From positions 8,244 through 72,243 of the forward strand of contig NZ_DASPSP010000018.1 in NCBI RefSeq assembly GCF_035623875.1: a stretch of DNA of 64,000 nucleotides, in the 5' to 3' direction. The notes beneath the pieces were generated by a model. The model was not told where the DNA came from, searched no databases, and was given only the letters and a program-made list of their open reading frames with translations. Shown in pieces: positions 44,756-63,220 of the stretch; the first letter of the stretch is position 1; every line of letters begins with the position of its first letter. This DNA comes from Mycobacterium sp. (GTDB lineage Bacteria > Actinomycetota > Actinomycetes > Mycobacteriales > Mycobacteriaceae). The position numbers were made by a program, and so were the translations under genes.

Positions 44756-45907
44756 TCAGATCAGTGCCGCGTCGAGGGTTTCATCGATCGCCAACCGATA
44801 ACCGCGTTTGACGACAGTCGCAACAATCTTCCTGTCGCCCAGTGCTCTTCGCAGCCGCAGCACGGCGGTGTCCACGGCGTGCGGATCGTTGGCGCTGCCC
44901 GGCAAAGTCCGCAGCAGTTCCCTGCGGGCGACCACGACGCCCGGACGATGCGCCAATGCACGCAGGATCGCCATCGCCGCCGGTGACACCGACTGGACGG
45001 TGCCGTCAACCAGCACTGCGGAACCGCGGATATCGATTCGATGGCCGGCCGCCTGCACCGTACGCGAGCGGAGCGTGGGCAGCTCCTTGGCGATATGTCT
45101 GGCCAGCTCGGCCAAGCGCATGCGATGTGGTAACGACGTCGGAACGCCCAAGCGTGCCAGCGGGTGTGCGGTCACCGGGCCCACACACATTGCTCGCACA
45201 TCGGCGCGCAGCGCGTCGAGCAGCTGGTCGTGGATGCCGAGATCGCCGGCCCGCATCAGCGTCGCTGCCACCGCCGGTGCCGAGGTGAAGCTCACCGCGT
45301 CGAATTGTCGGTGGGCGACCTGTGTGATCAGCTGGTCGAACTCGCCGCCCGCCGGTACCGGTTTCCACCGGTATACCCGGATCGGGACCACCTCGGCGCC
45401 CGCGCTGCGCAGCTCGTCGAGAAACTCCGGAAACGGATCCCACTGCTCGGTAGCACCGTGCAGCTGCACTGCGATGCGACAGCCGGTGATGCCGGATTGC
45501 CGCAGATATTGCACGAGCTCGCGCGACGATTCGGTTTTCGGGGACCACTCCTCCGACAGGCCCGCAGCGCGTAATGCGCCGGTGGCCTTCGCCCCACGCG
45601 CCACTATCCGGGCGCAGGACAACGCCGCGGTGAGCTGACTGCGCAGCCGCCATCCCTGGGCGGCGGCGATCCAGCCGCGAAATCCGATGCCGGTCGTCGC
45701 GATCAGAATATCCGGCGGCCTGGTTATCAAAGCTTCTGTGTTGCAGCGCAATTTGTCGTCATCAGGCAATGCGACCATGGTGATCGCCGCCGCACTGCCA
45801 ACGGTGGCGCCGTGGCGGCGCAGCAGCGCGCAGAGCTCGTCGGAGCGCCGTGCAGAGGTGACCGCCACCCGGTAGCCGGCGAGCGACGGCGCGGCTGGGT
45901 GACCCAT
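44756..45907 (-). CDS. nnaR: Uroporphyrinogen-III synthase-like domain fused to winged-helix; nitrate/nitrite assimilation regulator (Rv0260c / NnaR)
   Basis: LAGYRVAVTSARR, ARGAKATGA, FTSAPA plus C-terminal HAVDTAVLRLRRAL...TVVKRGYRL. Confidence 0.88.
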   Translation of the reverse strand: MGHPAAPSLAGYRVAVTSARRSDELCALLRRHGATVGSAAAITMVALPDDDKLRCNTEALITRPPDILIATTGIGFRGWIAAAQGWRLRSQLTAALSCARIVARGAKATGALRAAGLSEEWSPKTESSRELVQYLRQSGITGCRIAVQLHGATEQWDPFPEFLDELRSAGAEVVPIRVYRWKPVPAGGEFDQLITQVAHRQFDAVSFTSAPAVAATLMRAGDLGIHDQLLDALRADVRAMCVGPVTAHPLARLGVPTSLPHRMRLAELARHIAKELPTLRSRTVQAAGHRIDIRGSAVLVDGTVQSVSPAAMAILRALAHRPGVVVARRELLRTLPGSANDPHAVDTAVLRLRRALGDRKIVATVVKRGYRLAIDETLDAALI

Positions 45908-45929
45908 ATGAATTATGTATGCCCGACAG

Positions 45930-45967
45930 ATTTCGGCTGCATTACCGAGCAATTGCTGACGCGTTGC
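45930..45967 (-). promoter_or_regulatory. Array of four GlnR-box-like half sites upstream of nnaR
   Basis: Minus strand GCAAC-n6-GCAAT-n6-GTAAT-n6-GAAAT, exact 11-bp period, resembling gTnAc-n6-GaAAc. Confidence 0.7.
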
Positions 45968-46002
45968 CCCTGTACCGCCCGCGCGGATGCTAGCCGGAAC
46001 TG

Positions 46003-46557
<555 letters not shown>

Positions 46558-46569
46558 TTACCAGGTGGA

Positions 46570-47475
46570 TTAACTCGCCGCCATCGAACTTGAAGCAGAA
46601 GCCGGCGCAGCCCTGGATCGCGACCAGTGCAGCCGCACATACTGCCCGGGCCGCACCTGGGCGACCTTGTCGATGTCTTGGTCGGCGATCACGCCGACCA
46701 CCGGGTAGCCGCCGGTGACGGGGTGATCCGGACCAAGGATCACCGGTAAGCCGTTGGGCGGCACCTGGATCGCACCGCGGGTGGCTCCCTCACTGGGCAA
46801 GACCCGATCGGGCGAGCGGTACTGCAGTGGGCGTCCCTCCAGCCGCATACCCACCCGGTCGCTGCGGTCGGAGGCCATCCAGATGGTGTGCACGAGAGCG
46901 TCCGGATCGACGAGCCAATCGTCGCGCGGGCCGGGCACCACCAGTAACTCCACCAGATGCTCGGAGATCGGCGCTACCGGAGCCTGGTCGAGTTCGGGAT
47001 ACTCGTCGGTGTGTTCGCCGACCGGCAGCACATCACCGGGCTGTAGCGGCAACGGCCCGATCGCCGACATGACGTCGTAGCTGCGGGAACCCAGCACCGG
47101 TGTCACGTCGATACCGCCACGCACCGCTAGATAGCTTCGCAACCCGAAGTATGGGACGCCCAACGAGATCACCTCGCCGTCGCGGACGTGCTGAATGCTG
47201 TTGGTGCCGAACATGATCCCGTCGACGCGCGGGTCCGTGTCAGCGCCGGTCACTGCGATGTCTACCTCGCCGCCGCGGACTCGTGCCCAGAACCCGCCGA
47301 AAGTCACCTCGATCGTCGCGCGGTCGTCGGGGTTGGCCACCAGCCGGTTGGCCAGCCTGTGCGATCGCCGGTCGGCTGCTCCTGATCGGGTGACGCCGAG
47401 ATGGGCCAGCCCCACCCGGCCCAAGTCCTGGACGAGGGCCAGCGGTCCGGTGCGCAAGATCTCCAGGGTTGTCAT
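46570..47475 (-). CDS. pxpC: 5-oxoprolinase subunit C / allophanate hydrolase subunit 2-like (Rv0263c)
   Basis: [39 protein letters not shown]; start MTTLEIL at 47475. Confidence 0.85.
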
Positions 47476-47510: not shown

Positions 47511-48158
47511 CTATGCGGCTCGGAACTGGACCCACATGCCCGGCATCAGCAGCGCCGGATTCGGCCGGTCGATATCCCACAAGACCGCGTCGGTGTGGCC
47601 GATCAGCTGCCACCCACCCGGAAATCGACGCGGGTTGATCACGCTGAATTCGCCGGCCAACCCTACGGCACCGGCCGGCACGGACGGCCGCGACTCCGGT
47701 CGCCGTGGTACGGCCAGCCGCGGATCGCCGACCAGATACGCGAAACCGGGTGTGAAGCCGCTGAATCCGACTCGCCAGGGGGCAGCGGTGTGGGCGTTGA
47801 TGACCTGCGCGGTGGTCAGCCCGGTTCGGTCGGCGACCTCGGCGAGGTCGGCGCCGTCGTAGACGACGTCGATCACCACATCGACGCGACCGTCTGGCGA
47901 AGTGGCCTGCACTGCGTCGGGGGCAACCTGCAACGTGCGCAGTCGATGGCGGATGACGCTCTGGTAGCGGGGGCCGTCGAGTTTCACCAGCACGGTGCGG
48001 GAGGCCGGGACGATGTCGAGCACACCGGGCAGCGCGGCCTCGCGCAGCGCGGCCGTCCACGCCAATACCTCAGCGGTGCTGTCGAACTGCAGTAGCAGCG
48101 CCTGATCGCCGTAGTCGAGAACGGTGTAGGCCACACCGAGATCCATTGCCACGCTCAT
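47511..48158 (-). CDS. pxpB: 5-oxoprolinase subunit B / allophanate hydrolase subunit 1-like (Rv0264c)
   Basis: [41 protein letters not shown]. Confidence 0.85.
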
Positions 48159-48198
48159 TACTCGACAGTAACCCCGCAGCGGGGCCGGCGGCGAGGAA

Positions 48199-48362
48199 TT
48201 TTCGAGCACTGCCAGAGGTGCCTTAGCAAATGTTCAAACGATCACCACGACTGCGGTGACCGGTGGGTTCTAGCGCAGGATATCGGCGATCAGCGGGGGC
48301 AACTGATCGGCCACCATCGGGTAGCTGAGCGGCGAGGCGGACGCGATCGCCTCGGCCTGGTC
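48199..48362. repeat. Direct repeat copy A (3' end of Rv0265c-like gene plus downstream flank)
   Basis: Aligns with 52825-52999, e.g. TTTTCGAGCACTGCCAGAGG and GGCAACTGATCGGCCAC are identical in both copies. Confidence 0.85.
48270..48362 (-). pseudogene. 3'-terminal remnant of an Rv0265c-like substrate-binding protein gene
   Basis: Encodes DQAEAIASASPLSYPMVADQLPPLIADILR*, versus DQAGAIAFASPLSYPLVADQLPALIANILH* in the intact gene at 52907-53887. Confidence 0.85.
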
Positions 48363-48402
48363 AGCCGCCTGCATGAAGCGATTCTGTTCTGTCGCATGCG
48401 CT

Positions 48403-48420
48403 GTCGGGCGTAAGCCCGAC
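48403..48420 (-). terminator. Hairpin just downstream of oplA
   Basis: GTCGGGC-GTAA-GCCCGAC, perfect 7-bp stem. Confidence 0.5.
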
Positions 48421-48445
48421 GGACCTGAAGGAATTCGCGGTGAGT

Positions 48446-51400
48446 TCAGGGGCGCCCGTATCCGCCGCCGCCGGGAGTGTGGATCTCCAGGATGTCGCCG
48501 GCGTTCAGCTCGACCGAGTCGCAGCCAGCGAGTTCGACGACGCTGCCGTCCACGCGGCGGACCAGGTTGCGACCGAGCGCACCTGGCGCTCCCCCGGCCA
48601 TCCCGTACGGGGGGACGCGTCGGTGCTGCGACAGCATGCTGACCGTCATGAGTTCCCGAAATCGGAGCCGCCGCACCGCGCCGTCCCCGCCGCGCCACCG
48701 CCCGTCCCCGCCGCTGCCGCGGCGGATCGCGAAGCTGTCGACCAACACCGGGAACCGCCACTCCAACACCTCGGGGTCGGTCAACCGGGAGTTGGTCATG
48801 TGGGTCTGGACCACCGAAGCCCCGTTATAACCCGGCCCCGCACCGGATCCGGAGGCGACGGTCTCGTAGTACTGGTGCCTGGCATTGCCGAACGTCACGT
48901 TGTTCATCGTCCCCGAGCCCTCGGCCTGTACCCCGAGCGCCGCGTAGAGGGCACCGGTGATGGACTGCGAGGTCTCCACGTTGCCGGCGACGACTGCGGC
49001 CGGATAAACCGGTGCGAGCATGCAGCCCGGCGGGATAACCACCTGCAGCGGCTTGAGGCAACCGTCGTTGAGCGGGATGTCGTCGTCGACCAGGGTCCGG
49101 AACGCGTACAGCACCGCGGCCATCACCACCGAAGTCGGTGCGTTGAAGTTGGTGTTCAGCTGTGGGGAGGTCCCGGTGAAATCGATTGTGGCCGTCCGAT
49201 TTTCCGCGTCGACTGAGACTCGGACCTTGATGACCGCCCCGCCGTCCATCTCATAGGTGTACTCGCCGTCGCCCAAAGCGGCGATCACGCGCCGCACCGC
49301 CTCCTCGGCGTTGTCCTGGACGTGACGCATGTAGGCCTGCACCACCTCCAGGCCGAAGTCGTCGATCATTTTGCGGACTTCCTCCACGCCTTTTTCGGTA
49401 GCGGCGATCTGGGCGCGTAGGTCCGCCAGGTTGGTCTCCGGGTTGCGTGAGGGGTACGACGCCCTGGTGAGCAGGTCGCGTGTCTCGGTCTCCCGGAGGG
49501 CGCCATGCTCCACCAGCAGCCAATTGTCGAACAGCACACCCTCCTCGTGCACGTCGCGGCTGCCCGCCGGCATCGAGCCGGGACTCACTCCGCCGATCTC
49601 AGCATGGTGGCCCCGGGCGGCGACGAAGAACAACAGCCGCTCGCCGTCTCCGAAAACCGGTGTGACGACGGTGACATCGGGCAGGTGGGTGCCGCCGTGG
49701 TAAGGGTCGTTGATCGCATACGCATCACCGATTTTCATCGCCCCGGCGTTACGGGCGATGATCTCCTTGACGGCCGCTCCCATCGAACCCAGGTGGACCG
49801 GGATATGCGGTGCGTTGGCGACGAGGTTGCCCTCGGGGTCGAACAACGCGCAGGAGAAGTCGAGCCGCTCTTTGATGTTCACCGACTGGGCCGTGGACTC
49901 CAGCCGCACCCCCATCTGCTCGGCGATCGACATGAACAGGTTGTTGAAGATCTCAAGCAGTACCGGGTCGGCGTCGGTGCTCACCTCGCCGGCGCCGGTG
50001 TGGGCGCGCACCCGCGTCAGCACAAGATGCCCGAGCTCTACTAACTCGGCGCGCCAGCCATCCTCGACCACCGTGGTCGCGTTGGTCTCGGCAATGATGG
50101 CCGGGCCGGTGACCGTCTCGCCGAGGACGAGCCGGTCCCGCCGGAACAGCGACACCTCGCGCCAGCCCCCCTGGTTGTACATGGGAACGGTGTCCACGGG
50201 CCCCGCAGGCGGGCCGTCCGGATGGGACGCCTCCGCCAAGGCGCGCAGGTCAGGCTGCTCGGTGAGTCCAACGGCCTCCACGGAGACGGCTTCGACTACC
50301 AGGGGACGGTCCATTAGGAACGAGTAGTTGCGTTTGTAGCTTGCCTCGAACTCGGCGGCCATCGTCTCCGGGTCGGCCAGGCCCACCTGGACCGCGATGT
50401 CGGTGCCGTCGTAGCGGAGGTGTGCCCGGCGGGTCACGCGGAGCCGCTCGTCGGGCACGTCCTCGTCTTGCAGGCGCGCGCGCGTGGCTGATTCCAGTGC
50501 ATCGGCGACCTCGCCCACCCGCTCCATCGCTTCCGGCTCAAGCTGGCACTCCACCGACTGTTCGCGCATGGCGGTCGCGTCCGCGAGCCCGATGCCCAAC
50601 GCGGACAGCACACCCGCCATGGGCGGAATCAAGACGGTGCCGATGCCCAAAGAATCGGCCACCGCGCAGGCGTGCTGGCCGCCGGCGCCCCCGAACGTGG
50701 TCAGCACGTACTCGGTGACGTCGCGCCCTTTTTGCACCGTGATTCGCTTGACCGCGTTGGCCATGTTGGCCACCGCGATCCGCAGGTAGCCCTCGGCGAC
50801 CTGCTCGGGGGTGCGGTCGTCGCCGGTCTGTGCGGCGATCTCGCGTGCCAGCTCACCGAACCGCCGCCCGACGATCTCGGCGTCCAGCGGCTGGTCGCCG
50901 TCGGGGCCGAAGACGGCGGGGAAATGGTTCGGCTGGACGCGGCCGAGCATAACGTTGGCGTCGGTGACAGTCAGCGGGCCGCCGCCTCGGTAGCAGGCCG
51001 GACCGGGATCGGCGCCCGCCGAGTCCGGGCCCACTCGGTACCGGGTGCCGTCGAAGTGCAGGACCGACCCGCCGCCGGCGGCAATGGTCTGGATGTCCAG
51101 CATCGGCGCGCGCAGCCGGACTCCCGCGACCAGGGTGTTGAAGACGCGCTCGTATTCCCCGGCGTAGTGCGACACATCCGTGGACGTGCCGCCCATATCA
51201 AAACCAATGACCTTGTCGAATCCAGCCAGCTCCGACATGCGAACCATCCCGACGATGCCGCCGGCCGGGCCGGACAGGATCGCGTCTTTGCCGCGGAAGT
51301 GTCCGGCCTCGGCCAGGCCCCCGTTGGACTGCATGAACATCAGTCGCACGCCCGGCAGCTCGGCGGCCACCTGCTGGATGTAGCGATGCAAGATCGGTGA

Positions 51401-52045
51401 CAGATATGCGTCGACGACGGTGGTGTCACCGCGCGAGACGAGCTTCATCAGCGGACTGACTTCCGCCGACAGCGAGATCTGCGGGAAGCCGATTTGTTTG
51501 GCGGCCTCGCCGATCGCCTGCTCATGGGCCGGGTACAGGTGGCTGTGCAGAGACGCAATGGCCACTGCGTGGATTCCGTCGCCGTAGGCCGCCCGCAGGT
51601 CGGTCGCCAGCCGGTCTAGATCCGGAGCCCGCAGCACCGTGCCGTCGGCCGTGACCCGTTCGTCGACCTCGATGACCCGTTCGTGGAGCAGTTCCGGCAG
51701 GACAATGTTGCGGGTGAAGATGCGCGGCCGGTTCTGGTAGCCGATCCGCAGCGCGTCCCCGAAACCCCGGGTGATGACGAGCGCCGTGCGCGCGCCCTTG
51801 CGCTCCAGCAGCGCATTGGTCGCTACCGTGGTGCCCATCCGCACCGCCTCGATCCGCTCGGCCGGAATCGGATCATCCGCCGCGAGTCCAAGCAGTGCGC
51901 GGATCCCCGCCACCGCGGCGTCGGCGTAGCGCGAGGGGTTGTCCGAAAGCAGCTTGTGCGTCACCAGACGCCCGTTCGGCTGACGGGCGACGATATCGGT
52001 GAACGTTCCACCGCGGTCGATCCAAAACTGCCACTTCCCGGCCAC
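48446..52045 (-). CDS. oplA: Single-chain 5-oxoprolinase / hydantoinase A+B fusion (Rv0266c)
   Basis: [63 protein letters not shown]; GAGGAG RBS before GTG 52045. Confidence 0.93.
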
Positions 52046-52204
52046 CCGATGCTCCTCATCGTTTAGTAGGGACGAGTTGCCGGTCACGGTGACTGCTGTT
52101 ACTGCCGGGGTGTACCAGCATGGGACGCGTGGCCTGTCGGTTGTCCCGATGCTCGGTGTCTTAGGAGACCACGGGCGCCTGGCGGCAGATCGCGTGAGCC
52201 GGAC

Positions 52205-52670
52205 TCATCCGGGCGCTGGGTAGTCAGTCAGCAACGCGCCGTGTTCGATCACCGCGGCGGCGTGCGCGACACCGAGCTCGGAGTAACGCGCGGCCAGCGA
52301 GGCCTCGCTTGCACTCGCAACCGACACCTCAGTCGGGAACGCTGGTCGCGAATACCAGTCGACTGCGATTTCGCCCAGCTGCCGCGAGCGTGCCCAGCGC
52401 TTCGGCGTTGACATGCACCGCCACGAGCACCATCGGCAGTTGGTCAGTCCCGAGGCGGCCGCGAGCCGCCAAAACCGTTGCCGCATGGTCCTCTAATGCG
52501 TGGTCCAGCGTGTGCAGCGCGCGACCGCACGCCGCCATGCTCTCCTGCGGCGGCGGATCCTGCTGCAGCAGGGCAGCCGCCGCGTGCTCCAATGCAACTC
52601 CAGCGAGTCGGACCATCTCGCCGACTCCGCTAGTACATGCGTCCAGTTCCGGTTGAGGGACAACACTCAC
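52205..52670 (-). pseudogene. Degenerate PhoU-family (PhoY-like) gene, frameshifted and internally shortened
   Basis: AGGAG RBS then GTG; frame 1 ELDACTSGVGEMVRLAGVALEHAAAALLQQD resembles PhoY helix 1-2; second frame QLGEIAV...AFPTEV and AARYSELGVAHAAAV resembles PhoY segments. Confidence 0.6.
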
Positions 52671-52824
52671 GACGGAACTCCTATTCTGACAACCTGCACG
52701 CCAAGACTGGTGCACTGACCAGGTCGTGTCAACGGGTAGGCCCTGGCGGGCGTCACCATCGCTCAAGGTGGTCATCCGTGGCGCTTGTCGTCGGTAACCG
52801 CGCGATCGGGCGGCGGTCGAGAGC

Positions 52825-52999
52825 TTTTCGAGCACTGCCAGAGGCGCCTTGGCCAATGCTCAGACGGCCGGCGGTTGGCCACGAAAACTACGGTGGCCGC
52901 CCGGGTCTAATGCAGGATATTGGCGATCAGTGCCGGCAACTGATCGGCCACTAGCGGATAGCTCAGCGGCGACGCGAAGGCGATCGCTCCGGCCTGGTC
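52825..52999. repeat. Direct repeat copy B
   Basis: Homologous to 48199-48362; covers the last ~30 codons of the intact gene and ~80 bp downstream. Confidence 0.85.
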
Positions 53000-53887
53000 C
53001 TTGGTGGTGAACACGCTGCGCGTCTGCAGAGCCGCCACGTCGGGATTGGCCAACAGCGCCGCGTGATCGTCCTCGCTTTCAGTCGTCCAGATCAGTAGAT
53101 CGGCGGCGTCGAGGACCGGCCTGATCTTGTCGCGCGGAATGAACGCGCGCTGCTGATCGACTGCGAAGGGGCTGATGTTGTCGGCGATGGCCAGACCCAT
53201 CTGCGTCAGAAACTCGGTGTGCCAACCGGTTATTGCCACCACATCGTCTTGGTGGAGCTTGCCTTGCAGCAGGAGCACTTTCTTGGTTTTGAACTGCGGA
53301 TATTTATCCGCAACGGCCGCGAAACTTCGATCGATGCCGTTGATCAGTGATTTCATCTGGTCGGGCTGAAAAACCGCCCGGCCGATCGCCGTCGCTTGGT
53401 CCTTCCACGGCTCGAAGAATGCGTCGCCGTCGGACTGTGGAATCGTTGGGGCGATCGCGGTGAGCTTCTGGTAGGTGTCCTCGTCGACGCCTGCGTCGGT
53501 GGCGACGATCAAGTCGGGTTTCAGACTGGCGATCCGCTGAACCTGAATTCCGTTGTCCAGATTCAACACAACGGGTTTGGCGTTGCCGAGTTTGGGCCGA
53601 GCCCACGGCCACACCGCGAACGGCTGGTCGCCGAACCAGTTGGTCACCGCTATCGGCACGACGCCGAGCGCGAGCAGGTCGTCCTGCCCGGTGTAACCGG
53701 CGCTGACCACTCGCTTGGGCGGTTCGGGGACGGTCGTCTCACCGAAAACATGCGTGATGGTCACGGGTCGGCCGCCGGGGCCGGCGGGCGCCGCCTTATG
53801 CGACGAGCAGGCGGGAGCCGCCACCGCGAGCAGCCCCGCGGCCGCGCCGACGCGCAGAAATCCGCGCCGACTCCATTGCTCTGGCAT
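52907..53887 (-). CDS. Iron-siderophore-type ABC substrate-binding lipoprotein, Tat-exported (Rv0265c-like)
   Basis: SRRGFL twin-arginine motif, lipobox APAC, HVFGETTVPEPPKRVV, IASLKPDLIV. Confidence 0.9.
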   Translation of the reverse strand: MPEQWSRRGFLRVGAAAGLLAVAAPACSSHKAAPAGPGGRPVTITHVFGETTVPEPPKRVVSAGYTGQDDLLALGVVPIAVTNWFGDQPFAVWPWARPKLGNAKPVVLNLDNGIQVQRIASLKPDLIVATDAGVDEDTYQKLTAIAPTIPQSDGDAFFEPWKDQATAIGRAVFQPDQMKSLINGIDRSFAAVADKYPQFKTKKVLLLQGKLHQDDVVAITGWHTEFLTQMGLAIADNISPFAVDQQRAFIPRDKIRPVLDAADLLIWTTESEDDHAALLANPDVAALQTRSVFTTKDQAGAIAFASPLSYPLVADQLPALIANILH

Positions 53888-53909: not shown

Positions 53910-54494
53910 TCAGGTCAACGGCATGCCGGCGTCGACGAAGTCCAGGGCACGGTAGACGGTGTCGGCCGCGCGCGGACCAGGCTCGTAGACTGCCATCATC
54001 GCGCCGGTGAGGGCTCCGGCGAATGCCCGAAGCTCGAAATCGTTTGCATCACGGCCGATTCGGCGGCCGATTGCCTCGGCGAACGTGGTGATGGTGCGGT
54101 AATACTCGTCGTACATGGCCGCCTTGAGTTCGGGTATCGAGAACATCAGCCGTTGCCGGGTGTTCTCGAACTCCCGTTGGTCCTCCGACAGATTGGCCAT
54201 GGCGGCCTGGTAGGCGCGCCGGACCGCCTGACTCGGCGAAAGGTCGGGCGGCTGTTCGTCCAAGGCATTCAGGATCACCGGGTCCATGTCGTCGGCGAGC
54301 AACACCGACTCCTTGGTCGGGAAATACCGGAAAAACGTGCTCGGCGATACCTCGGCGGCCTCAGCGATCTGCTCGACCGTGGTGGCGGCGTAACCGTTTT
54401 CTTCGATCAGCCGAAACGCCTCCCGCCTGATGGTCTGGCGGGTCCTGATCTTCTTGCGTTCCCGCAGACCGGGGGTTTGGTCAGTCACCTGCAT
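53910..54494 (-). CDS. TetR-family regulator
   Basis: GLRERKKIRTR...ATTVEQIAEAAEVSPSTFFRYFPTKE. Confidence 0.92.
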   Translation of the reverse strand: MQVTDQTPGLRERKKIRTRQTIRREAFRLIEENGYAATTVEQIAEAAEVSPSTFFRYFPTKESVLLADDMDPVILNALDEQPPDLSPSQAVRRAYQAAMANLSEDQREFENTRQRLMFSIPELKAAMYDEYYRTITTFAEAIGRRIGRDANDFELRAFAGALTGAMMAVYEPGPRAADTVYRALDFVDAGMPLT

Positions 54495-54606
54495 GAGGTA
54501 ATTCTCCCGCACGCCGCGCGGAGGGGTGATGCGTAGTGCAGTGAACATGCTCTTCCAACCGTATGTTTGCCGGAAACATGCTGCAATTCAGATGATTTGG
54601 CGCTTA

Positions 54607-56487
54607 TCACGCCGACAGCTTCACCGCCCTGTCGTTGCCCCGGTCGGCGACGTAGATATTCCCGGCGTTGTCCACGGCCACCCCCAACGGGGTGTTGAGC
54701 CCGGTCAGCGGCAGCGCGGTCGGGGTGTTCGATCCGGCCGGCAACTTCAACACTTGGTTGCCGTCGTGTTCAGTGACGAAAACGTCGCCGACGTTGTCCA
54801 CCGCGATACCCCACGGGACGGCGACGCCGATGAACGGGAGCGCGGTCTGAGTTGTCGAGCCGGCCGCCAGCATCGACACCCGGTTGTTGTCGGTGTCGGT
54901 GACGTAGACGTTGCCGGCGGGGTCGACCGCCACGCCATCGGGGTTCTTGAGCCCGGTGAACGGCAGCACGGTCTGAGTTGTCGAGCCGGCCGCCAACTTC
55001 AACACCCGGTCGTTGCCCCGGTCGGCGACATAGACGCTGCCCTGGCCATCCACCGCTACACCTTCGGGATAGTTCAGGCCGGTAAACGGCAGCACGGTCT
55101 GGCCGGTCGACCCGGCCGTCAACTTGACCACCCTGTTGTTGAAATCGGCGACGTACACGGCCCCGGCGCTGTCTACCGCGAGCCCCTGGGGCTGGTAAAG
55201 GCCGCTGAACGGCAGCACCGTCGGGGTGCTTGATCCGGGCGCCAACTCAACCACGCGTCCGTACATGCCCTCGCTGGTGACGTACACATCGCCGGCTTTG
55301 TCCACCGCCACCCCGCCGGGCGATAGGCGGAAGTCGATACCGGTGAACGGCAGCTCAGTTTGTGCGGAGGTCGGATGCTTCGATGCCGCCGACGGGTGCG
55401 CCCCCAAATAGCCGGTGGTAGCGATAGCCGCGACTGCCAGCAGTGCGGCTGCGCCGATAAGGATCCACCGCTTGCGGTTTCGGCTGGGCGGGGGCGCATT
55501 GCGGGTGAAGTCCGGTGGGGGCGTGGGGGACTGGTGATTGGGCGGCGGTGTGCTTACCCAGGGCGTGGGCCGAGCCGTGGTCTCGACGGCGTCGGCCATC
55601 CGCGTCGCATCCTGGCTGTGCCGCAGAATCGTCGCCTCTTGGTATTGCTCGGGCGCGGTAAGCGCCTCATGAGCGGCCACGGCCAGATCTCCGGCGGAGC
55701 AGTAGCGGTCTGCCGGGTTCTTGGCCATGCCTTTGCCGATAACCGGATCGAGGGCCGGCGGAACCCGCCCGGGACGGAGCTCGCTGGGCCGCGGCGCGGG
55801 TTCGAGCAGATGGGCGGCGATCAGCCGTTCGACGCTGGTGGCCCGATACGGCGGTGCGCCGGTCAAACACTCACCCAACACGCAGGCCAGCGCATAGATG
55901 TCGGAGCGGTAGGTGACCTCGTCGCCGGTGAAGCGCTCCGGCGCCATGTAGTTGTAGGTCCCCACCGCAAATCCGCTTTGGGTCAGCCCAGGGTCGGTGG
56001 CGGCGCGGGCAATTCCGAAATCAACCAAATAGGCGAAGTCGTCATTGGTTAACAGAATGTTTTCCGGTTTGACATCTCGATGTGTGACGCCGTTAGCGTG
56101 CGCCGCGTCGAGCGCGGCGGCGATCTGGCGCACGATGGCAACGCTTCGCGCCGGGCTCAGCGGACCGTAGTTCGTCAACAGCGCGCGCAGCGAGACGCCG
56201 TCGATCATGCGCATTTCTACGTAGAACTGACCGTCGATATCGCCATAGTCATGGATGGGAACGATGTGCGGTTCGGTCAGCCGTCCCGCGGTGTCGGCTT
56301 CCCGTCGCATCCGCATGTAAAACGTTGCGTCGGTGGAGAATTGCGGCGAGATCAGCTTCAGCGCGACCACCCGGTGCTTGCGGGTGTCCTCGGCCTCATA
56401 GACCTCGCCCATGCCGCCGCGGCCTAACAGCCGCCTCAACTGATACGGGCCAAACCGTAAGCCAACCCGCGAAACGGTACTGTTCAC
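54607..56487 (-). CDS. pknD: Ser/Thr protein kinase PknD with extracellular NHL beta-propeller
   Basis: GRGGMGEV, HRDVKPEN, DFG, YMAPE; one TM; six LPFTGL-x-P-x-G-VAVD blades; AAGGAG RBS. Confidence 0.93.
   Translation of the reverse strand: MNSTVSRVGLRFGPYQLRRLLGRGGMGEVYEAEDTRKHRVVALKLISPQFSTDATFYMRMRREADTAGRLTEPHIVPIHDYGDIDGQFYVEMRMIDGVSLRALLTNYGPLSPARSVAIVRQIAAALDAAHANGVTHRDVKPENILLTNDDFAYLVDFGIARAATDPGLTQSGFAVGTYNYMAPERFTGDEVTYRSDIYALACVLGECLTGAPPYRATSVERLIAAHLLEPAPRPSELRPGRVPPALDPVIGKGMAKNPADRYCSAGDLAVAAHEALTAPEQYQEATILRHSQDATRMADAVETTARPTPWVSTPPPNHQSPTPPPDFTRNAPPPSRNRKRWILIGAAALLAVAAIATTGYLGAHPSAASKHPTSAQTELPFTGIDFRLSPGGVAVDKAGDVYVTSEGMYGRVVELAPGSSTPTVLPFSGLYQPQGLAVDSAGAVYVADFNNRVVKLTAGSTGQTVLPFTGLNYPEGVAVDGQGSVYVADRGNDRVLKLAAGSTTQTVLPFTGLKNPDGVAVDPAGNVYVTDTDNNRVSMLAAGSTTQTALPFIGVAVPWGIAVDNVGDVFVTEHDGNQVLKLPAGSNTPTALPLTGLNTPLGVAVDNAGNIYVADRGNDRAVKLSA
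54610..55362 (-). repeat. Six tandem NHL repeats (about 126 bp each) in pknD
   Basis: Recurring QTVLPFTGL..P.GVAVD..G.VYV.D..N.RV.KL units. Confidence 0.85.
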
Positions 56488-56526
56488 CGGCCACGCTCCT
56501 TTCAAAAATTCGTCAAATTCCGCTGT

Positions 56527-57633
56527 CTACGAAATTGCATTCACAGCTGCTGCGATTTTCGATTGGAATGCGCTCGGCAGCGGAATCGATCCGTACTGAT
56601 CCAAACCGTCTTGACCCGGACCAATTGCGGCCTGCATAAACGCTTTTACCGCCGCGCCAGTAGCAGAATCTGGATATTTCGAGCAAACGATTTCATAGGT
56701 CGGCTCCACGATCGGATACGCACCAGGTTGCGTTGGCCGGTAAAACGACGAGGTGTCCACCACCAGGTCATTGCCCTGTCCCTTGAACGTGGCCCCGGCA
56801 ATGGTCTTGCTCACCGAGTCGGTGGTGATCTCCACCGGATCCGGACCGGCTGAGGTAATGATCTGGGCCATGCTCAATTGCCGGCCCACCCCGAACGACC
56901 ATTCGTTATAGGTGATCGACCCTTCGGTGCTCTGCACTTCCGCCGAGGTGCCGTTGTCCCCGACGCCGCCGTCGCCGACACCCCCGAGGAATGTCTGGCT
57001 GGCACCTTTGCCCCACGCGCCGTTGGATGCGGCGACCAGGTATCGCTCAAAGTTCGACGTGTCAGCGGATTGGTCGCTGCGGAAAAAGACGTGGATGGGC
57101 TCCGACGGCAAGGTGGTGCCCGGATTGAGCGCGCCGATCACCGGGTCATCCCAGCTGGTAATCGCTCCGTTGAAGATCTTTGCGAGCGTGGCTGCATCAA
57201 GTTTCAGCGAGTTCACGCCGTTGACGTTGTAGGTGACCGCGATTGGTTCGAACACCGCCGGCAAGTCCCACGCCGGCGAACCGCATCGCTGCGCCGCCCG
57301 ATCGACCTGCCCTTTCGACGGATCCAACGGATCGCCGGAACCCGCCAGATCGCTGACGTTGTTGACGAAGTCCGTCACCCCGGCACCGGAGCCGTTGGCG
57401 TTGTAGTCCAGCGTGTAGCCCGGGCACGCATGGACGTAGGCGAAGACGAATTGTTCGATCGCATTCTCTTGCGCGGTCGCGCCGCTGCCCTTGAGCTGCT
57501 TCTTTCCACCGCATTGCACCTGAGCCGAGCTGGCTCCAGCCGACGATGCGTGGGTGGAGCTGCCACACCCCGTCAACACCAGTGCGCTGGCGGCCAACAG
57601 ACTCAGCACGGCGCCGTATCGGTTGAACTTCAC
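56527..57633 (-). CDS. pstS2: PstS2-like substrate-binding lipoprotein with atypical binding-site motifs
   Basis: GGAGGAG RBS, VKFNRYG start, lipobox [24 protein letters not shown]; motifs read [15 protein letters not shown]. Confidence 0.88.
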
Positions 57634-57828
57634 CGGAAACTCCTCCGAATCGTCAGGGAGGCGGACACACTCACTCCGCCACCGGGGAGCCCCCTTCGGA
57701 TCACGTTGTGCCCCGGCGGACCAGCCCGTGAACCTGTGAATATCGAAGCCTCGGAACATGGGTGCAGGATTAGCGACCGCTTTAAAAAGGATTAGCAAAC
57801 GACAAGAGAATCGGGAAGAGCCTGAAGG

Positions 57829-57866
57829 TAAGCACGATTTAAGCACAGAATGAGCGGCACCTGAGC
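57829..57866. promoter_or_regulatory. Four T(A/G)AGC direct repeats at 11-bp period in the pstS2/pstB divergent intergenic region
   Basis: TAAGC 57829, TAAGC 57840, TGAGC 57851, TGAGC 57862. Confidence 0.55.
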
Positions 57867-57964
57867 CAGATGAGTAGCAGGTTAGTGCCACCTTTGAAAA
57901 TAAATAGAGCATTGCGCCGCCGAATCATCAGTGGGGCATGACGACGTAACTTTGTGGAGTGTTG

Positions 57965-58828
57965 ATGACCCGTGACCAGCTCAACGCCGAGACCGGTGCT
58001 GAAGCTGGTGTCGATGCTCCGGCCATGCGTGCGGTGAACCTCACCCTGGGTTTCGGCGCCACAACCGTCCTCCACGAGGTGAGCCTGGACTTTCCCCCGC
58101 AGTCGATCACGTCCTTGCTGGGGCCGACCGGCTCCGGTAAGACGACCTTCCTGCGCACCCTGAATCGTATGAACGACAACGTTTTTGGATACCGCTATAG
58201 CGGTGATGTCCTGTTGGGCGGACGCAGCATCTTCAAAAGCCAAGACCTGATGGAGTTTCGCCGCAGGGTCGGCATGCTGTTCCAGCGTCCCAATCCATTC
58301 CCGATGTCGATCTTGGACAACGTAGTTGCGGGTCTGGGCGCACATAAGCTGGTGTCCCGCAAGCACTTTAAGAGTGTTGCGCAGGCTCGCCTGGCCGAGG
58401 TCGGCCTCTGGGATGCGGTTAAGGATCGGCTCGGTGATTCGCCATTCCGGCTCTCCGGAGGTCAACAACAATTGTTGTGCCTGGCTCGTGCGCTTGCAGT
58501 GAACCCGGAGGTCCTGCTGCTCGACGAGCCCACCTCATCGCTGGACCCGGCCACGACCGAGAAAATCGAAGAGCTCATTCGATCGCTGGCCAACCGGCTC
58601 ACCGTGATCATGGTGACGCACGACCTTGCCCAGGCCGCCCGCATAGGCGACCGGACCGCCTTGTTCTTTGACGGCAGGTTGGTGGAGGACGGACCCACCG
58701 AACAGCTGTTCCTCTCGCCAAAGCATGCGGAGACCGTCCGTTATGTCTCTGGACTGTTTGGCGACCGCCACCTTCTGGGTGTGGTCGTCGGGGCCACAGA
58801 CGCCAACGAGGGAAAGAAAGGTGAGTGA
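57965..58828 (+). CDS. pstB: Phosphate-type ABC transporter ATPase (Rv0933-like)
   Basis: GPTGSGKT, FQRPNPFPMSI, LSGGQQQ, LLLDEPT, VTH. Confidence 0.93.
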   Translation: MTRDQLNAETGAEAGVDAPAMRAVNLTLGFGATTVLHEVSLDFPPQSITSLLGPTGSGKTTFLRTLNRMNDNVFGYRYSGDVLLGGRSIFKSQDLMEFRRRVGMLFQRPNPFPMSILDNVVAGLGAHKLVSRKHFKSVAQARLAEVGLWDAVKDRLGDSPFRLSGGQQQLLCLARALAVNPEVLLLDEPTSSLDPATTEKIEELIRSLANRLTVIMVTHDLAQAARIGDRTALFFDGRLVEDGPTEQLFLSPKHAETVRYVSGLFGDRHLLGVVVGATDANEGKKGE

Positions 58829-58833
58829 GGGCC

Positions 58834-59949
58834 GTGAAAATCTCGCTGCGTACGCTGCTGGTTGCGGTGCCATTGATCCTGGTCGCCGCTGGTTGCGGTT
58901 CGAACTCAACAGGCGGGTCGTCCAACCCCGGGGCTAGCACCGGTAGCGTCGCGACTACGCCCGCGACGTCGAAGGTCGCATTGTCGGAGACCGGGGCCAC
59001 AGAGCTGTACCCGCTGATGAATTCATGGGTTCCGGCTTATCAGGCGAAATACCCGAACGTCACGATCACGACTGCGGCCACCGGGTCGGGCGCCGGGATC
59101 TCCCAGGCAATTGCCAGGGCGGTCGATATCGGCGCCTCCGGCGCCTACCTGTCGCAGGGTCAGATTTCCGCGCACAAGGGGCTGATGAATATCGCCTTGG
59201 CCATTGCCGCCGAGGAGGTCCACTACAACGTGCCCGGTGTCAGCGAGCACCTCAAGCTGAACGGCAAGGTGCTGGCGGCCATGTATGAAGGCACCATCAA
59301 GGCTTGGAATGACCCGCAGATCGCCGCGCTCAACCCCGGAGTGAATTTGCCGGCCATCCCGGTGGTTCCGCTACACCGTTCCGACGGGGCCGGCGATACT
59401 TTCGTGTTCACCCAGTACCTGTCGAAACAAGACCCCGACGGCTGGGGTAAGTCGCCCGGCTTTGGCACCACCGTCGACTTCCCCGCGGTGCCGGGCGCGC
59501 TCGGTGAGAACGGCGCCGGTGGCATGGTGACCGGCTGCGTTCAGACTCCCGGTTGCGTCGCCTACATCGGCATCAGCTACCTCGACCAGGCCAGCCAGAA
59601 GGGACTGGGCGAGGCCGAACTGGAAAATGCCTCCGGCAAGTACCTGCTGCCGGATGCCCAAAGCATTCCGGCTGAGGCCGCCGGTTTCGCCTCGCAGACC
59701 CCGGCAAACCAGGTGATCTCACTGATCAACGGACCAGCCGCCAACGGGTACCCGATCGTCAACTATGAGTACGCCGTTGTCTACGGCAGCCAGAAGGATG
59801 CCGCTACCGCACAGACGCTGCAGGCATTTCTGCACTGGGTGGTGACCGAAGGTAGCGGCCCCTCGTTCCTGGATAAGGTTCACTTTCAACCGCTGCCGTC
59901 CTCGGTGGAGAAGCAGTCCGACGCTCAAATCGCCAGCATCACAAGTTAG
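58834..59949 (+). CDS. pstS1: PstS1-like (38 kDa antigen family) substrate-binding lipoprotein with atypical binding-site motifs
   Basis: Lipobox AAGC, YPNVTIT, TGSGAGI, HLKLNGKVLAAMY; motifs read GATEL, GASGAY, RSDGAGDT. Confidence 0.92.
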   Translation: MKISLRTLLVAVPLILVAAGCGSNSTGGSSNPGASTGSVATTPATSKVALSETGATELYPLMNSWVPAYQAKYPNVTITTAATGSGAGISQAIARAVDIGASGAYLSQGQISAHKGLMNIALAIAAEEVHYNVPGVSEHLKLNGKVLAAMYEGTIKAWNDPQIAALNPGVNLPAIPVVPLHRSDGAGDTFVFTQYLSKQDPDGWGKSPGFGTTVDFPAVPGALGENGAGGMVTGCVQTPGCVAYIGISYLDQASQKGLGEAELENASGKYLLPDAQSIPAEAAGFASQTPANQVISLINGPAANGYPIVNYEYAVVYGSQKDAATAQTLQAFLHWVVTEGSGPSFLDKVHFQPLPSSVEKQSDAQIASITS

Positions 59950-59958
59950 CTCGATGCG

Positions 59959-61029
59959 TTGACGCTTCCCACGCGACAGCGGGCGCTGGCCGACCCGCTA
60001 GTGGTATCGCGCTTGCTGGGCCGCATGCGTGGCGTGAGCCGCGGGGGCATTGCCGTCCGGTGGGCTGGCGGGGCGGGTGCGGTGATCCCGTTGCTCGCGC
60101 TCGTGTTCGTGCTGGGCACGCTGATCATCGAGGCGCTTCCGGCGATCAGGCTCAACGGGCTGCACTTCTTCACCGCCACCGAATGGAATCCGGGAAACCT
60201 TTACGGCAGCACCGAAGTCAGCAACGGTGTTCCACATCCGGTCGGTGCGTACTACGGGGCATTGCCGATGATCGTCGGCACGTTGGCGAGTTCCGCGATC
60301 GCCCTGATGATCGCGGTACCGGTGTCTGTCGGGGCGGCGTTGGCGATCGTGGAACGGCTACCAAAACGTGCTGCCTCGGCCGTCGGCATGGTGCTCGAAT
60401 TGCTCGCCGGGATCCCCAGTGTCGTCGTCGGCCTCTGGGGGGCAATGACTTTCGGGCCGTTCATCGCCCACCACGTCGCTCCCGTGATCGCGCGTAATGC
60501 GCCGAATGTGCCGGTGCTCAATTATTTCCGCGGGGACACCGGCAACGGGGAAGGCATGTTGGTGTCCGGCCTGGTGCTGGCGGTGATGATCATTCCGATC
60601 ATTGCCAGCACCTGCCGCGATCTGATCCGGCAGGTGCCGTCGCTACCACGCGAGGGTGCGATCGCGCTCGGCATGTCCGACTGGGAGTGTGCGCGCAAGG
60701 TCACCCTGCCATGGGTGTCTAGCGGCATTGTCGGCGCCATCGTGCTGGGATTGGGACGTGCGCTGGGCGAGACGATGGCCGTTGCCATGGTGTCCGGTGC
60801 GGAGTTGGGTGCCATGCCCGGCAACATCTACTCGACCATGACCACCATCGCCGCAACCGTTGTGTCGCAGTTGGATTCAGCGTTAACCGACTCCACCAAC
60901 TTCGCAGTGAAGACCCTTGCCGAGGCAAGTCTTGTGCTGATGGTGATCACGTTGCTGACGAATATGTTGGCTCGTGCGCTGGTGCGCCGCGCGTCGGGTA
61001 CCGCGCTACCAGTCGGGCGGGGTATCTGA
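59959..61029 (+). CDS. pstC1: Phosphate-type ABC permease PstC (Rv0935-like)
   Basis: [28 protein letters not shown] (EAA loop), [10 protein letters not shown]. Confidence 0.93.
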
Positions 61030-61030
61030 A

Positions 61031-61885
61031 ATGTGGTCGGTAACCTCTCGGCGCAAAACTGTCAACGCGATGTGGTGGACCGCATGTTTCTGTTGTCTGG
61101 CGATGGTGATCGTACCGACGTTGTGGATGCTGATCGGGGTCGTCGGCCGTGCGTTGCCGGTGTTCCACTGGAGCGTGCTGGTCGAAGACTCGCATGGCGG
61201 CGGTGGCGGTCTTCGCAACGCCATTGTCGGTACCCTGGTCCTGGGCCTGGGGGTCGTGCTGGTGGGTGGCACCGTCAGTGTGTTGGCCGGGATCTACCTG
61301 TCCGAATTCGCCACCGGCAGAACGCGTTCGATTCTGCGCGGCGCTTATGAGGTACTGTCGGGCATCCCATCAATCGTGCTCGGATACGTCGGCTATCTGG
61401 CGCTCGTGGTCTACTTCGACTGGGGGTTCTCGCTGGCGGCTGGAGTCTTGACGCTGTCGGTATTGAGTATCCCGTACATCGCTAAGGCCACCGAATCGGC
61501 GCTCGGTCAAGTGCCGACGGCATACCGAGAAGGGGCAACGGCGCTGGGGCTGCCGGTCGTTTGGACGCTGCGCAGGATCGTGCTGAAGACGGCACTACCC
61601 GGAATCGTCACCGGCATGCTGGTGGCGCTCGCGCTGACGATCGGTGAGACGGCGCCGATGCTTTATACGGCCGGCTGGTCGGATTCCCTTCCGACCGGCA
61701 AACTTACCGACTCACCGCTCGGTTACCTGACGTATCCGATCTGGACGTTCTACAACCTGCCGTCGAAAACCGCCCTGGACCTGTCCTATGACGCGGCCTT
61801 TTTGCTGATCGTGTTCTTGCTGCTGCTGATCATCCTGGGACGGCTGATCACCTGGTTCGCGCGGCGGCATTCAGAATCGGCGTGA
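61031..61885 (+). CDS. pstA2: Phosphate-type ABC permease PstA (Rv0936-like)
   Basis: [33 protein letters not shown]. Confidence 0.93.
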
Positions 61886-61901
61886 GATTTGCCGACGGCT
61901 C

Positions 61902-63155: not shown

Positions 63156-63220
63156 GGGCTGATAGTAATTCCGGACTATTTTCCAGCTGCGGTGCGACGT
63201 CCGTCACATAGGGTGAAGCT

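Follow-up and report, generated by a model that had tools for sequence, protein, structure and literature searches.

In the window, by which we mean the whole stretch of 64,000 nt of Mycobacterium DNA that was analysed, an oplA gene lies between fecB2 and pxpB and is flanked by sequences related to each other. Most probably (we put it at roughly 0.7), one recombination event placed a foreign module of a PhoU-like gene and oplA at the fecB2-pxpB junction, thereby creating a duplication of approximately 2 kb, and the predicted OplA activity would have rendered PxpA dispensable. Direct repeats, relatives with an empty site and foreign cargo, the marks of an insertion scar with flanking duplication, are all present. 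The scar is of an ordinary kind but is unusually well documented by relatives. The features concerned are the following.

46570..47475, minus strand: pxpC, Rv0263c orthologue (CT_A_B; Pfam)
47511..48158, minus strand: pxpB, Rv0264c orthologue (CT_C_D; Pfam)
47990..52855, no strand: tract exchanged recently, 96-100% identical to genome G278, with flanks at 85-93%
48159..48269, minus strand: copy A of the intergenic region, of beta type, 111 nt long and lying directly upstream of pxpB (alignment)
48270..48362, minus strand: fecB2', a 3' fragment (31 final codons, stop included) that makes up the coding portion of repeat copy A
48363..48400 (boundaries approximate), minus strand: small tetR' remnant, the 5' part of a second tetR copy (alignment with the remnants of G276, G412 and G104)
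48446..52087, minus strand: oplA, predicted fused hydantoinase A/B-type ATP-dependent 5-oxoprolinase of 1213 aa, intact, judged to be foreign cargo (Pfam)
52205..52670, minus strand: PhoU-like cargo gene, a pseudogene here (45% over aa 38-128 in a tblastn comparison with the PhoU protein of L030)
52788..52999, no strand: repeat copy B, made up of the 3'-terminal 31 fecB2 codons and 119 nt of the intergenic sequence behind them
52907..53887, minus strand: fecB2, Rv0265c-like periplasmic binding lipoprotein, full-length native upstream copy (Pfam PF01497, Peripla_BP_2)
53910..54548, minus strand: native tetR-family regulator with TetR_N and an MftR-type C domain (Pfam)

Local alignment of 48162-48362 with 52788-52999 yielded 163 identical positions out of 214 (76%) with four small indels. 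The pair scored an E value of 2e-36 in blastn and was also picked up by a separate repeat search. A preliminary description of this DNA, made from the letters alone, had reported homology between 48199-48362 and 52825-52999, covering about 30 codons and sequence downstream, which holds over the longer alignment and 31 codons. It had also reported weaker similarity continuing toward the start of pxpB. In the window this similarity stops at GGTTAC, immediately short of the pxpB ATG, owing to the loss of approximately 118 bp at that place in the window lineage; in the related genomes G276 and G412 it reaches pxpB codon 10. On its other side, the fecB2' fragment is joined to the tetR' remnant through a deletion. 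According to tblastn the fecB2 fragment would reach 48410; this was rejected as spurious, the stretch at approximately 48363-48400 being the tetR' remnant instead. A distant donor for copy A, hinted at by the likeness of an 'ATEQNRF' stretch to the FecB2 C-terminus of G003, G008 and G010, was likewise rejected, since this stretch belongs to the tetR' remnant and since the remnants fall within the peat clade in trees.

Both repeats contain a conserved intergenic motif of about 40 nt (48198-48240 in copy A, 52824-52866 in copy B), which is present in all mycobacteria examined. A scan of 47900-53100 gave no Rfam match for it, and promoter and terminator scans found nothing. The PxpR operator of C. 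glutamicum (PMC13274462) was considered as its counterpart and rejected, as the two do not resemble each other. The intergenic region upstream of pxpB is kept in every cassette-bearing genome, though the neighbouring DNA is heavily deleted.

The source organism of the window is a peat-soil Mycobacterium, and its layout recurs in G278, G276, G412 and G104 and in the peat metagenome contigs L118-L120. G276 and G412 retain tetR' and both fecB2' ends between oplA and pxpB, as three pieces (71-78% identity, ~640 nt) colinear with the tetR-fecB2-intergenic unit that lies upstream in the same genome. In these two genomes copy B continues through codon 10 of pxpB (nt 1-31) and then gives way to foreign DNA. 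Judged from these alignments, the repeats are left over from a duplication that spanned at least 1.9 kb (~2 kb), took in tetR, fecB2, the sequence between fecB2 and pxpB, and codons 1-10 of pxpB, and brackets the PhoU-like gene and oplA. Its first gene, tetR, adjoins fecB2 in T0 and T3 relatives. The second copy still measures about 0.7 kb in G276 and G412, has shrunk to 0.3 kb both in the window and in G278, and is shorter again in G104; the parts deleted differ between the window, G278 and G104. The comparison demonstrates the trimming of a redundant downstream duplicate by independent deletions, with the intergenic motif before pxpB alone kept everywhere. The arrangement of intact gene, cargo and 3' fragment had been described as what the single-crossover integration of a circle, or a tandem duplication with later deletion, would leave. 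The scar does set oplA between a full and a fragmentary copy, but the layout is not the direct product of the event, since the second copy of the relatives was once a whole tetR-fecB2-intergenic unit that was cut later.

In trees, the remnants of all five genomes formed one group (support 100/100) inside the clade, where they sat in a polytomy and on a long branch. Sites diagnostic for the clade showed 10 outgroup states in the remnant compared to about 3 expected (p = 0.001). The downstream remnants accordingly have a single origin and appear to branch from the stem of the peat clade. The divergence of the repeats had been taken to mean an old event or a donor of another species. The event is old, but a distant donor is unneeded; most of the divergence is neutral decay, to which an origin on the clade stem or in a sister lineage adds.

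Strains with an empty site, which the preliminary description had named as a check, were indeed detected: in eleven clade genomes, representing at least ten related species, fecB2 lies directly beside pxpB (G019, G098, G386, G268, G200, G239, G162, G194, G045, G212 and G046). All empty-site genomes and the upstream copies of G276 and G412 carry the alpha type of intergenic region, and all downstream copies carry the beta type. In the window itself the upstream copy is beta-like too; this speaks against the reading preferred below, which then requires an extra gene conversion or crossover. An origin of the empty sites as pop-outs by recombination between the repeats was judged unlikely, because all of them carry the alpha type. 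The upstream tetR-fecB2 of the window is syntenic and orthologous with that of the empty-site relatives; its fecB2 is the sole full copy in the genome and is 82-88% identical, at the aa level, to those of clade relatives. In the flank trees, species that carry the cassette are intermingled with empty-site species.

The oplA product contains Hydant_A_N, Hydantoinase_A, Hydant_A_C and Hydantoinase_B in a single ORF (Pfam E values of 1e-58 to 1e-201), matching the fused HyuA/HyuB architecture of OplA-type polypeptides of ~1200 aa, and is 76% identical to the M. tuberculosis-type protein. Cassette-type oplA forms a clade of its own (support 100) outside the clade (93) of all other sampled actinobacterial and mycobacterial oplA, and is for this reason judged foreign. 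The cargo as a whole is counted as foreign by this tree and by the restriction of the PhoU-like gene to the peat clade; no anomaly was seen in its base composition. A phoU relic had been reported next to oplA, and positions 52205-52670 do show homology to a PhoU-like gene, of which intact copies (212 aa) occur in G278 and L120. The window copy starts with GTG at 52670, preceded by AGGAG, and compared to G278 it has suffered a 6-nt deletion, a 2-nt frameshift near 52384 and a 165-bp deletion. For this gene 13 relatives only were found, the nearest named one being from Pseudonocardia (37% identical). The intact G278 orthologue scored 19.5 bits against PF01895, for which the cut-off is 23.5, and a homologue from other mycobacteria, 41-45% identical to the PhoU-like protein, scored 57 bits with two PhoU repeats.

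These two genes are the entire cargo, which has space for no more, in agreement with the earlier statement that integrase and transposase are absent. No tRNA gene was detected within 40000-62000 by a tRNA scan, and no terminal inverted repeats around the cargo by a repeat search. A blastn search for a plasmid carrier with 48100-53000 gave only generic oplA matches of at most 75% and no phage-type match. The recombinase, the tRNA or att target and the terminal inverted repeats of an integrase- or transposase-borne island, an ICE or a transposon are thus missing.

The cassette has also moved recently. The window and G278 are nearly identical from 47990 to 52855 and diverged outside it, and both in this pair and in a second species pair, G276 and G412, the cassette is 98-100% identical and the flanks 85-92%. 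According to a mismatch map, the first ~170 nt of pxpB in the window are part of the exchanged tract, and both recent tracts run past copy A to end at pxpB +130 to +170. As a near-identical cassette lies inside diverged flanks in two pairs, the alignments demonstrate that ordinary homologous recombination in the flanking DNA has carried the cassette and its downstream remnant from one species to another. Genomes of M. smegmatis and M. canettii are reportedly mosaics from distributive conjugal transfer or inter-strain recombination, with which the tracts share kilobase lengths of near identity within diverged flanks between species. In contrast to such mosaics, the tract here coincides with an accessory cassette, and in two independent pairs its ends lie within ~70-170 bp of the cassette edges.

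In the reading that we prefer, the original event would have occurred in or near the stem of the peat-soil mycobacteria clade. The incoming DNA would have derived from a sister lineage and carried PhoU-oplA followed by its own tetR-fecB2-intergenic-pxpB. It would have recombined homologously on the pxpB side and formed an illegitimate joint in pxpB codon ~10 on the other, a process of homology-facilitated illegitimate recombination. In G276 and G412 both an anchor within pxpB and a joint at nt 31 of that gene can be seen, and the beta intergenic type and the stem-branching remnant fit a donor origin. A donor arrangement of PhoU-oplA followed by intact tetR-fecB2-pxpB was found neither in the genome contigs nor in the sample of 401 genomes, and among the metagenome matches listed, the search for intact oplA-tetR-fecB2 returned only an already known contig of cassette type. 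Homology-facilitated illegitimate recombination is said to take place in natural transformation of Acinetobacter and Streptococcus pneumoniae. As in that process, one end is homologous (pxpB) and the other is joined in pxpB nt 31 without homology beyond, and the donor's neighbouring genes would have been carried in, giving duplicated orthologues.

A Campbell-type single crossover of a circle with the same homology would yield an identical product; the sole difference from the preferred reading is that the incoming DNA was a closed circle. The circle, carrying PhoU-oplA and ~2 kb of tetR-fecB2-intergenic-pxpB(1-31), would have integrated and thereby duplicated the homology; a plasmid might have served, as might a circle released through repeat recombination in another strain, and the present repeats could regenerate such circles. 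As in suicide-plasmid merodiploids, direct repeats of the homology, here of native type, flank the insert, and one unit is truncated at its 5' or 3' side and decaying. The two ends of the unit lie inside or beside genes, and the remnants are native-like and not distant. Against this, the window holds no vector, plasmid or integrative-element genes and gave no plasmid match, the recent tracts have no common crossover point inside both repeats and resemble linear double crossovers, and the upstream copies of G276 and G412 are of recipient type up to the joint, so that we consider a circle possible but rather unlikely. Simple tandem duplication of tetR-fecB2-intergenic-pxpB' in situ in the clade ancestor, with foreign DNA caught at the novel joint (e.g. 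by end joining), vertical descent and repeated cassette losses, is improbable and the least favoured route. The single origin of the remnants from the clade stem would suit it, the polytomy on a long branch is compatible with a stem duplication and several losses, and multiple losses would likewise interleave the species in the flank trees. However, it calls for no fewer than three independent precise losses, pop-outs should usually leave beta next to pxpB where all empty sites have alpha, transfer of the cassette between species is directly observed, and the surplus of outgroup states in the remnant points to a source beyond the crown group.

The preliminary description would have yielded to relatives with two full-length ancient fecB2 paralogues flanking oplA, copy A then being an ordinary pseudogene. 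Copy A does amount to ordinary decay of a pseudogene, which comes near that scenario; no genome or contig with two intact copies was found among the genome contigs, the 401-genome sample and the metagenome matches listed. A variant of the M. tuberculosis order, in which copy A is the decayed original and the upstream tetR-fecB2 arrived later, draws on the fact that M. tuberculosis, M. shimoidei, Mycolicibacter and others have oplA immediately upstream of fecB2-pxpB, like oplA-fecB2'-pxpB here. It is nevertheless very improbable and largely refuted by the oplA tree, as cassette oplA is not orthologous to the M. tuberculosis-type loci; these loci moreover lack the PhoU-like companion and the tetR' contained in the remnant, and the upstream tetR-fecB2 has its orthologue in synteny at the empty sites. 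Finally, the motif common to all mycobacteria examined would alone make a short repeat. That the likeness arose by chance or through a conserved regulatory motif alone, and not from a common duplication, is refuted to the point of being negligible by 31 in-frame codons plus stop within 214 nt of such significance, and by the colinear tetR and fecB2 sequence of the relatives.

OplA and PxpABC are reportedly alternative prokaryotic 5-oxoprolinases. In C. glutamicum, pxpTABC constitutes a 5-oxoprolinase system (PMC13274462). In line with such alternatives, the window genome has an OplA-type enzyme together with PxpB and PxpC homologues, and pxpA and oplA are anticorrelated in the genus: pxpA is missing in 30 of 49 oplA carriers versus 9 of 352 non-carriers (401 genomes), counts that ignore phylogeny. 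Within the clade, pxpA is a deletion pseudogene in the window genome, absent in G104, and frameshifted in G278 and in G412, an assembly that has many frameshifts and may be of low quality; it is intact in 10 of the 11 empty-site members. Since cassette genomes tend to lose pxpA, with independent lesions within the clade, these patterns suggest that OplA replaced the PxpA-dependent 5-oxoprolinase. By its predicted activity, OplA would supply the conversion of 5-oxoproline to glutamate, PxpA would become dispensable and pxpA would decay in carriers. Unlike in the alternative systems, pxpB and pxpC are kept here without pxpA, and a second pxpBC pair next to pxpA was not found. The orthologues of PxpB and PxpC in M. 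smegmatis bind long-chain acyl-CoA carboxylase and sequester biotin (PMC13012033); by analogy, PxpB and PxpC here may serve no 5-oxoprolinase at all, and the findings suggest that the Rv0264c and Rv0263c homologues are retained for some other role.

In M. tuberculosis H37Rv, the locus Rv0266c (oplA)-Rv0265c (fecB2)-Rv0264c/Rv0263c-Rv0262c-Rv0260c has the same native gene order and orientation downstream, with fecB2, pxpB, pxpC, the GNAT gene and the HemD-type regulator in common with the window and with oplA linked. The order oplA-Rv0265c-Rv0264c given earlier for H37Rv was recovered in genome G265 (L108). In H37Rv oplA lies upstream of fecB2, whereas in the window it lies between fecB2 and pxpB, is of another lineage, and comes with a PhoU-like gene and then second tetR-fecB2 remnants.

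The locus represents a clean natural case of a mycobacterial chromosome gaining an accessory metabolic gene without mobile-element machinery, in which the by-products, a redundant neighbour copy and an unneeded PhoU-like gene, were erased stepwise and differently by species. It also provides direct evidence of recent homologous exchange between species of environmental mycobacteria and bears on the annotation of Rv0264c and Rv0263c of M. tuberculosis. More speculatively, and with the odds somewhat against it, PhoU-oplA and its trailing remnant might be a recombinase-free mobile islet that arose by one-sided homologous import from a sister lineage and spreads between species of peat mycobacteria via nothing but the motif and the pxpB 5' end, each arrival leading to independent loss of pxpA while PxpB and PxpC are kept by their acyl-CoA carboxylase task. 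If true, this would explain why M. tuberculosis possesses oplA, Rv0263c and Rv0264c but no pxpA.

The preliminary description had noticed two homologous segments bracketing oplA, and these are real: local alignment of positions 48162-48362 with 52788-52999 gave 163 identical positions out of 214 with four small indels (blastn E value 2e-36), and the pair was also recovered as families D2/D3 in a repeat search of the window. Each copy comprises the last 31 codons of fecB2, the stop codon and ~110-120 nt downstream; no further fecB2 copy is present elsewhere in the genome. Every gene between 44.7 and 57.9 kb of the window is carried on the minus strand, in the following order:

56527-57912, minus strand, pstS
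54607-56505, minus strand, gene for a PknD-like kinase
53910-54548, minus strand, gene for a TetR regulator (tetR)
52907-53887, minus strand, full-length gene for a Peripla_BP_2 lipoprotein, orthologue of Rv0265c/fecB2
between fecB2 and oplA, unannotated stretch of 0.8 kb
52205-52670, minus strand, degraded PhoU-like gene within this 0.8 kb upstream of oplA
48446-52087, minus strand, oplA (1213 aa, all four hydantoinase/oxoprolinase domains)
between oplA and pxpB, spacer of 287 nt
47511-48158, minus strand, pxpB
46570-47475, minus strand, pxpC
46003-46548, minus strand, GNAT gene
44756-46027, minus strand, gene for a HemD-type regulator

The phoU relic reported between the repeats proved to be a degraded PhoU-like gene that matches residues 38-128 of a 245-aa PhoU-domain protein preceding oplA in other mycobacteria (45% identity), with its C-terminal 40 residues persisting in a different frame. 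An intact orthologue (212 aa) is found in genome G278 and in the peat metagenome contig L120; compared with G278, the window carries a 6-nt deletion, a 2-nt frameshift and a 165-bp deletion. In the near-identical contigs L118 and L119 the gene is damaged by other lesions, so its loss is repeated and ongoing. The PhoU-like gene and oplA are the only cargo between the copies and, in agreement with the reported lack of an integrase or transposase, no recombinase gene is among them. A tRNA scan found no tRNA gene at the locus, no terminal inverted repeats surround the cargo, its base composition shows no anomaly, and plasmid matches were to generic oplA only.

Four arrangements of the locus were found in the genus:

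T0: tetR-fecB2-pxpB-pxpC-GNAT, without oplA
T1: oplA-fecB2-pxpB-pxpC-GNAT, in M. shimoidei, Mycolicibacter and the M. tuberculosis-type genome G265 (4,411,532 bp)
T2: PhoU-like gene and oplA convergent with a pxpB-pxpC pair
T3: the window arrangement, in genomes G278, G276, G412 and G104 and the peat metagenome contigs L118-L120

The order oplA-Rv0265c-Rv0264c, earlier given for H37Rv, is correct and corresponds to the T1 layout of G265. Flank trees placed the window in a clade of ~17 sampled species of peat-soil mycobacteria, and strains with the empty site (T0, pxpB directly after fecB2) were looked for and found in eleven of these species. Among other mycobacteria, loci L027, L030, L107 and L112-L114 carry a different PhoU-like-oplA pair convergent with pxpB-pxpC and a GNAT fragment, and in several Streptomyces (loci L095-L102) oplA is convergent with pxpC-pxpB. 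The pknD-pstS/pst block (window 54526-61901) is missing at the corresponding position in G278, where sequence matching window 61901-64000 adjoins tetR directly; as pstS-pknD is present here in G412, G104 and the T0 genome G200, the 7.4-kb block is a further insertion/deletion polymorphism of this clade.

Between oplA and pxpB, G276 and G412 have 715 nt that are colinear with the genome's own upstream region in three pieces with 71-78% identity (tetR nt 66-179; the 3' end of tetR with fecB2 nt 1-102; and the final 97 nt of fecB2 with the intergenic region and pxpB nt 1-30), and the upstream copy runs on through pxpB nt 1-31, after which the foreign DNA begins. From this extent, the duplicated unit measured at least 1.9 kb and included tetR, fecB2, the intergenic region and ten pxpB codons. 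Most of the downstream copy has been lost in the window and G278, leaving a ~35-nt tetR remnant (roughly 48363-48400) joined to the last 31 codons of the fecB2 remnant, and G104 shows a third deletion distinct from those of both pairs. At the left joint, where native pxpB 5' sequence meets the foreign DNA, the window lineage has additionally lost ~118 bp, so that its repeat ends just short of the pxpB ATG position. The proposed insertion or duplication scar, its old age and the existence of empty sites were upheld, but the event did not leave the small 3' fragment directly: a complete second copy came first and was reduced to it by subsequent pseudogene decay.

In its right half, the intergenic region has either of two forms, alpha or beta. 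All T0 genomes have the alpha form (CTGGTTTCACCAG...), as do G276 and G412 in their upstream copy; every downstream copy has the beta form. Upstream copies of the window (52788-52823 compared with 48162-48197), G278 and L120 are beta-like, which requires later gene conversion or crossover between the repeat copies. Since the alpha form lies next to pxpB in all T0 genomes, these are unlikely to be pop-outs of T3. Upstream of the pxpB/Rv0264c orthologues, all mycobacteria examined share a conserved ~40-nt intergenic motif (GTYTGAGCRTTTGCTAAGGCASCTCTGGCAGTGCTCGAAAA) that hardly varies across the genus. It was located at 48198-48240 and 52824-52866 of the window and in loci L003-L131, including the M. 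tuberculosis-type and Mycolicibacter loci, and is kept in both copies though neighbouring duplicate DNA has been deleted. For this motif neither an Rfam match nor a sigma-70 consensus was found. We infer that it would be the control region of pxpB, the upstream copy now serving the PhoU-like gene and oplA. A role of the motif as promoter or operator is possible, perhaps for the TetR encoded next to it.

Phylogenies of the copies and of oplA, suggested in the preliminary description, separated the cargo from the remnants. A tree of 44 OplA proteins grouped the seven T3 sequences in one clade (support 100). It lay outside a second clade (support 93), which took in, except for five outgroup-type Streptomyces sequences, all other sampled Actinomycetota, among them the mycobacterial T1 and T2 proteins. 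For the T3 PhoU-like protein, a large protein collection contained only 13 relatives. Eleven come from metagenomes, and their genes show the same layout in all cases with available context; the closest named relative is from Pseudonocardia (37% identity). Judged from these sequence comparisons, the cargo is foreign to mycobacteria. All five downstream remnants are mycobacterial. They form a single group (100/100) that sits on a long branch with the peat clade, not with the next outgroup (100/100). At 44 diagnostic sites, where clade consensus and outgroup differ, the G276 remnant shows the clade state at 27, the outgroup state at 10 and another state at 7. From its 22% decay at invariant sites ~3 outgroup states were expected (p = 0.001), and this excess indicates that the remnant lineage branched off on the clade stem. 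The second copy is native-like but not crown-group.

The second copy was made by one event, in which the right end of the inserted DNA lay in homology (pxpB) and the left end formed a joint inside pxpB codon ~10. We tentatively favour, with a probability of roughly 0.4, a one-sided import from a sister lineage, in which a segment PhoU-oplA-tetR-fecB2-intergenic region-pxpB would have entered through a homologous anchor at one end and an illegitimate joint at the other. It is plausible that the donor had oplA upstream of the fecB2 block, since this order is common in T1. The postulated arrangement was not found in the genome contigs, the 401 genus genomes or the metagenome matches listed, which holds the rating of the import down. 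Single-crossover integration of a circle with the same homology, as originally envisaged, would give an identical product; for the same missing donor we regard it as rather doubtful.

The other proposal, tandem duplication in situ, would have to be combined with capture of the cargo and multiple losses, and appears improbable. Ordinary pseudogene decay of copy A had been named as the consequence of two full-length ancient paralogues flanking oplA; the second copy was indeed once complete and then decayed. Ancient paralogy itself is hardly credible.

More recent movement of the cassette followed the founding event. The window and G278 share 85-93% identity in tetR, fecB2, pxpC, GNAT and the HemD-type regulator gene, but 96-100% from about 52855 to about 47990, a tract which starts inside the copy B intergenic motif, spans the PhoU-like gene, oplA, the remnant and copy A, and ends ~170 nt into pxpB. 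Likewise, G276 and G412 are 85-92% identical in the flanks and 98-100% across the cassette, between the left joint and pxpB +170. The flank trees intermix T3 and T0 species, with G104 (T3) sister to G200 (T0) in both. The simplest reading of these identities would be that double homologous crossover within the conserved flanks carried the cassette and downstream remnant into related genomes. Donor flanks that eroded afterwards could account for tract ends lying so close to the cassette edges. Within oplA, a ~450-bp patch (49150-49600) is only ~93% identical to G278, with 2-6 mismatches per 50 bp in surroundings of 98-100%, which suggests that another short segment of the cassette has recombined.

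OplA is the fused ATP-dependent type of 5-oxoprolinase. The other prokaryotic 5-oxoprolinase consists of PxpA with PxpB/PxpC, as described for an actinobacterial case (PMC13274462). In clade genomes pxpA (PF03746, LamB/YcsF) is unlinked to the oplA locus, and it is intact in 10 of 11 T0 members. The only pxpA of the window genome is a pseudogene with two internal deletions (contig C318:10504-10849; locus L132 2504-2849); its site is syntenic with that of the intact gene in genome G019 and lies in the middle of a 36.7-kb contig. Among T3 genomes, pxpA is frameshifted in G278 and G412, absent in G104 and intact in G276. The G412 genome is 74% complete and also has frameshifts in fecB2, tetR, pxpB and pxpC (locus L104); these may be assembly errors rather than biology, and pseudogene calls in G412 need caution. 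In more distant relatives (loci L011-L021) an extra gene of ~240 aa lies between fecB2 and pxpB; it encodes a polytopic membrane protein and is not pxpA.

Across 401 genus genomes, pxpA is lacking in 30 of 49 oplA carriers compared to 9 of 352 non-carriers (Fisher's test ignoring phylogeny, p = 1.6e-24; within the clade, p = 0.013). This absence among carriers points to displacement of PxpA by OplA. The pxpB and pxpC genes remain intact. oplA became linked with pxpBC in three or more layouts independently of each other, a recurrence that may reflect a functional tie. The locus is a new case, well resolved, of a kind of event already known, to which recent exchange between species and the loss of pxpA are added.
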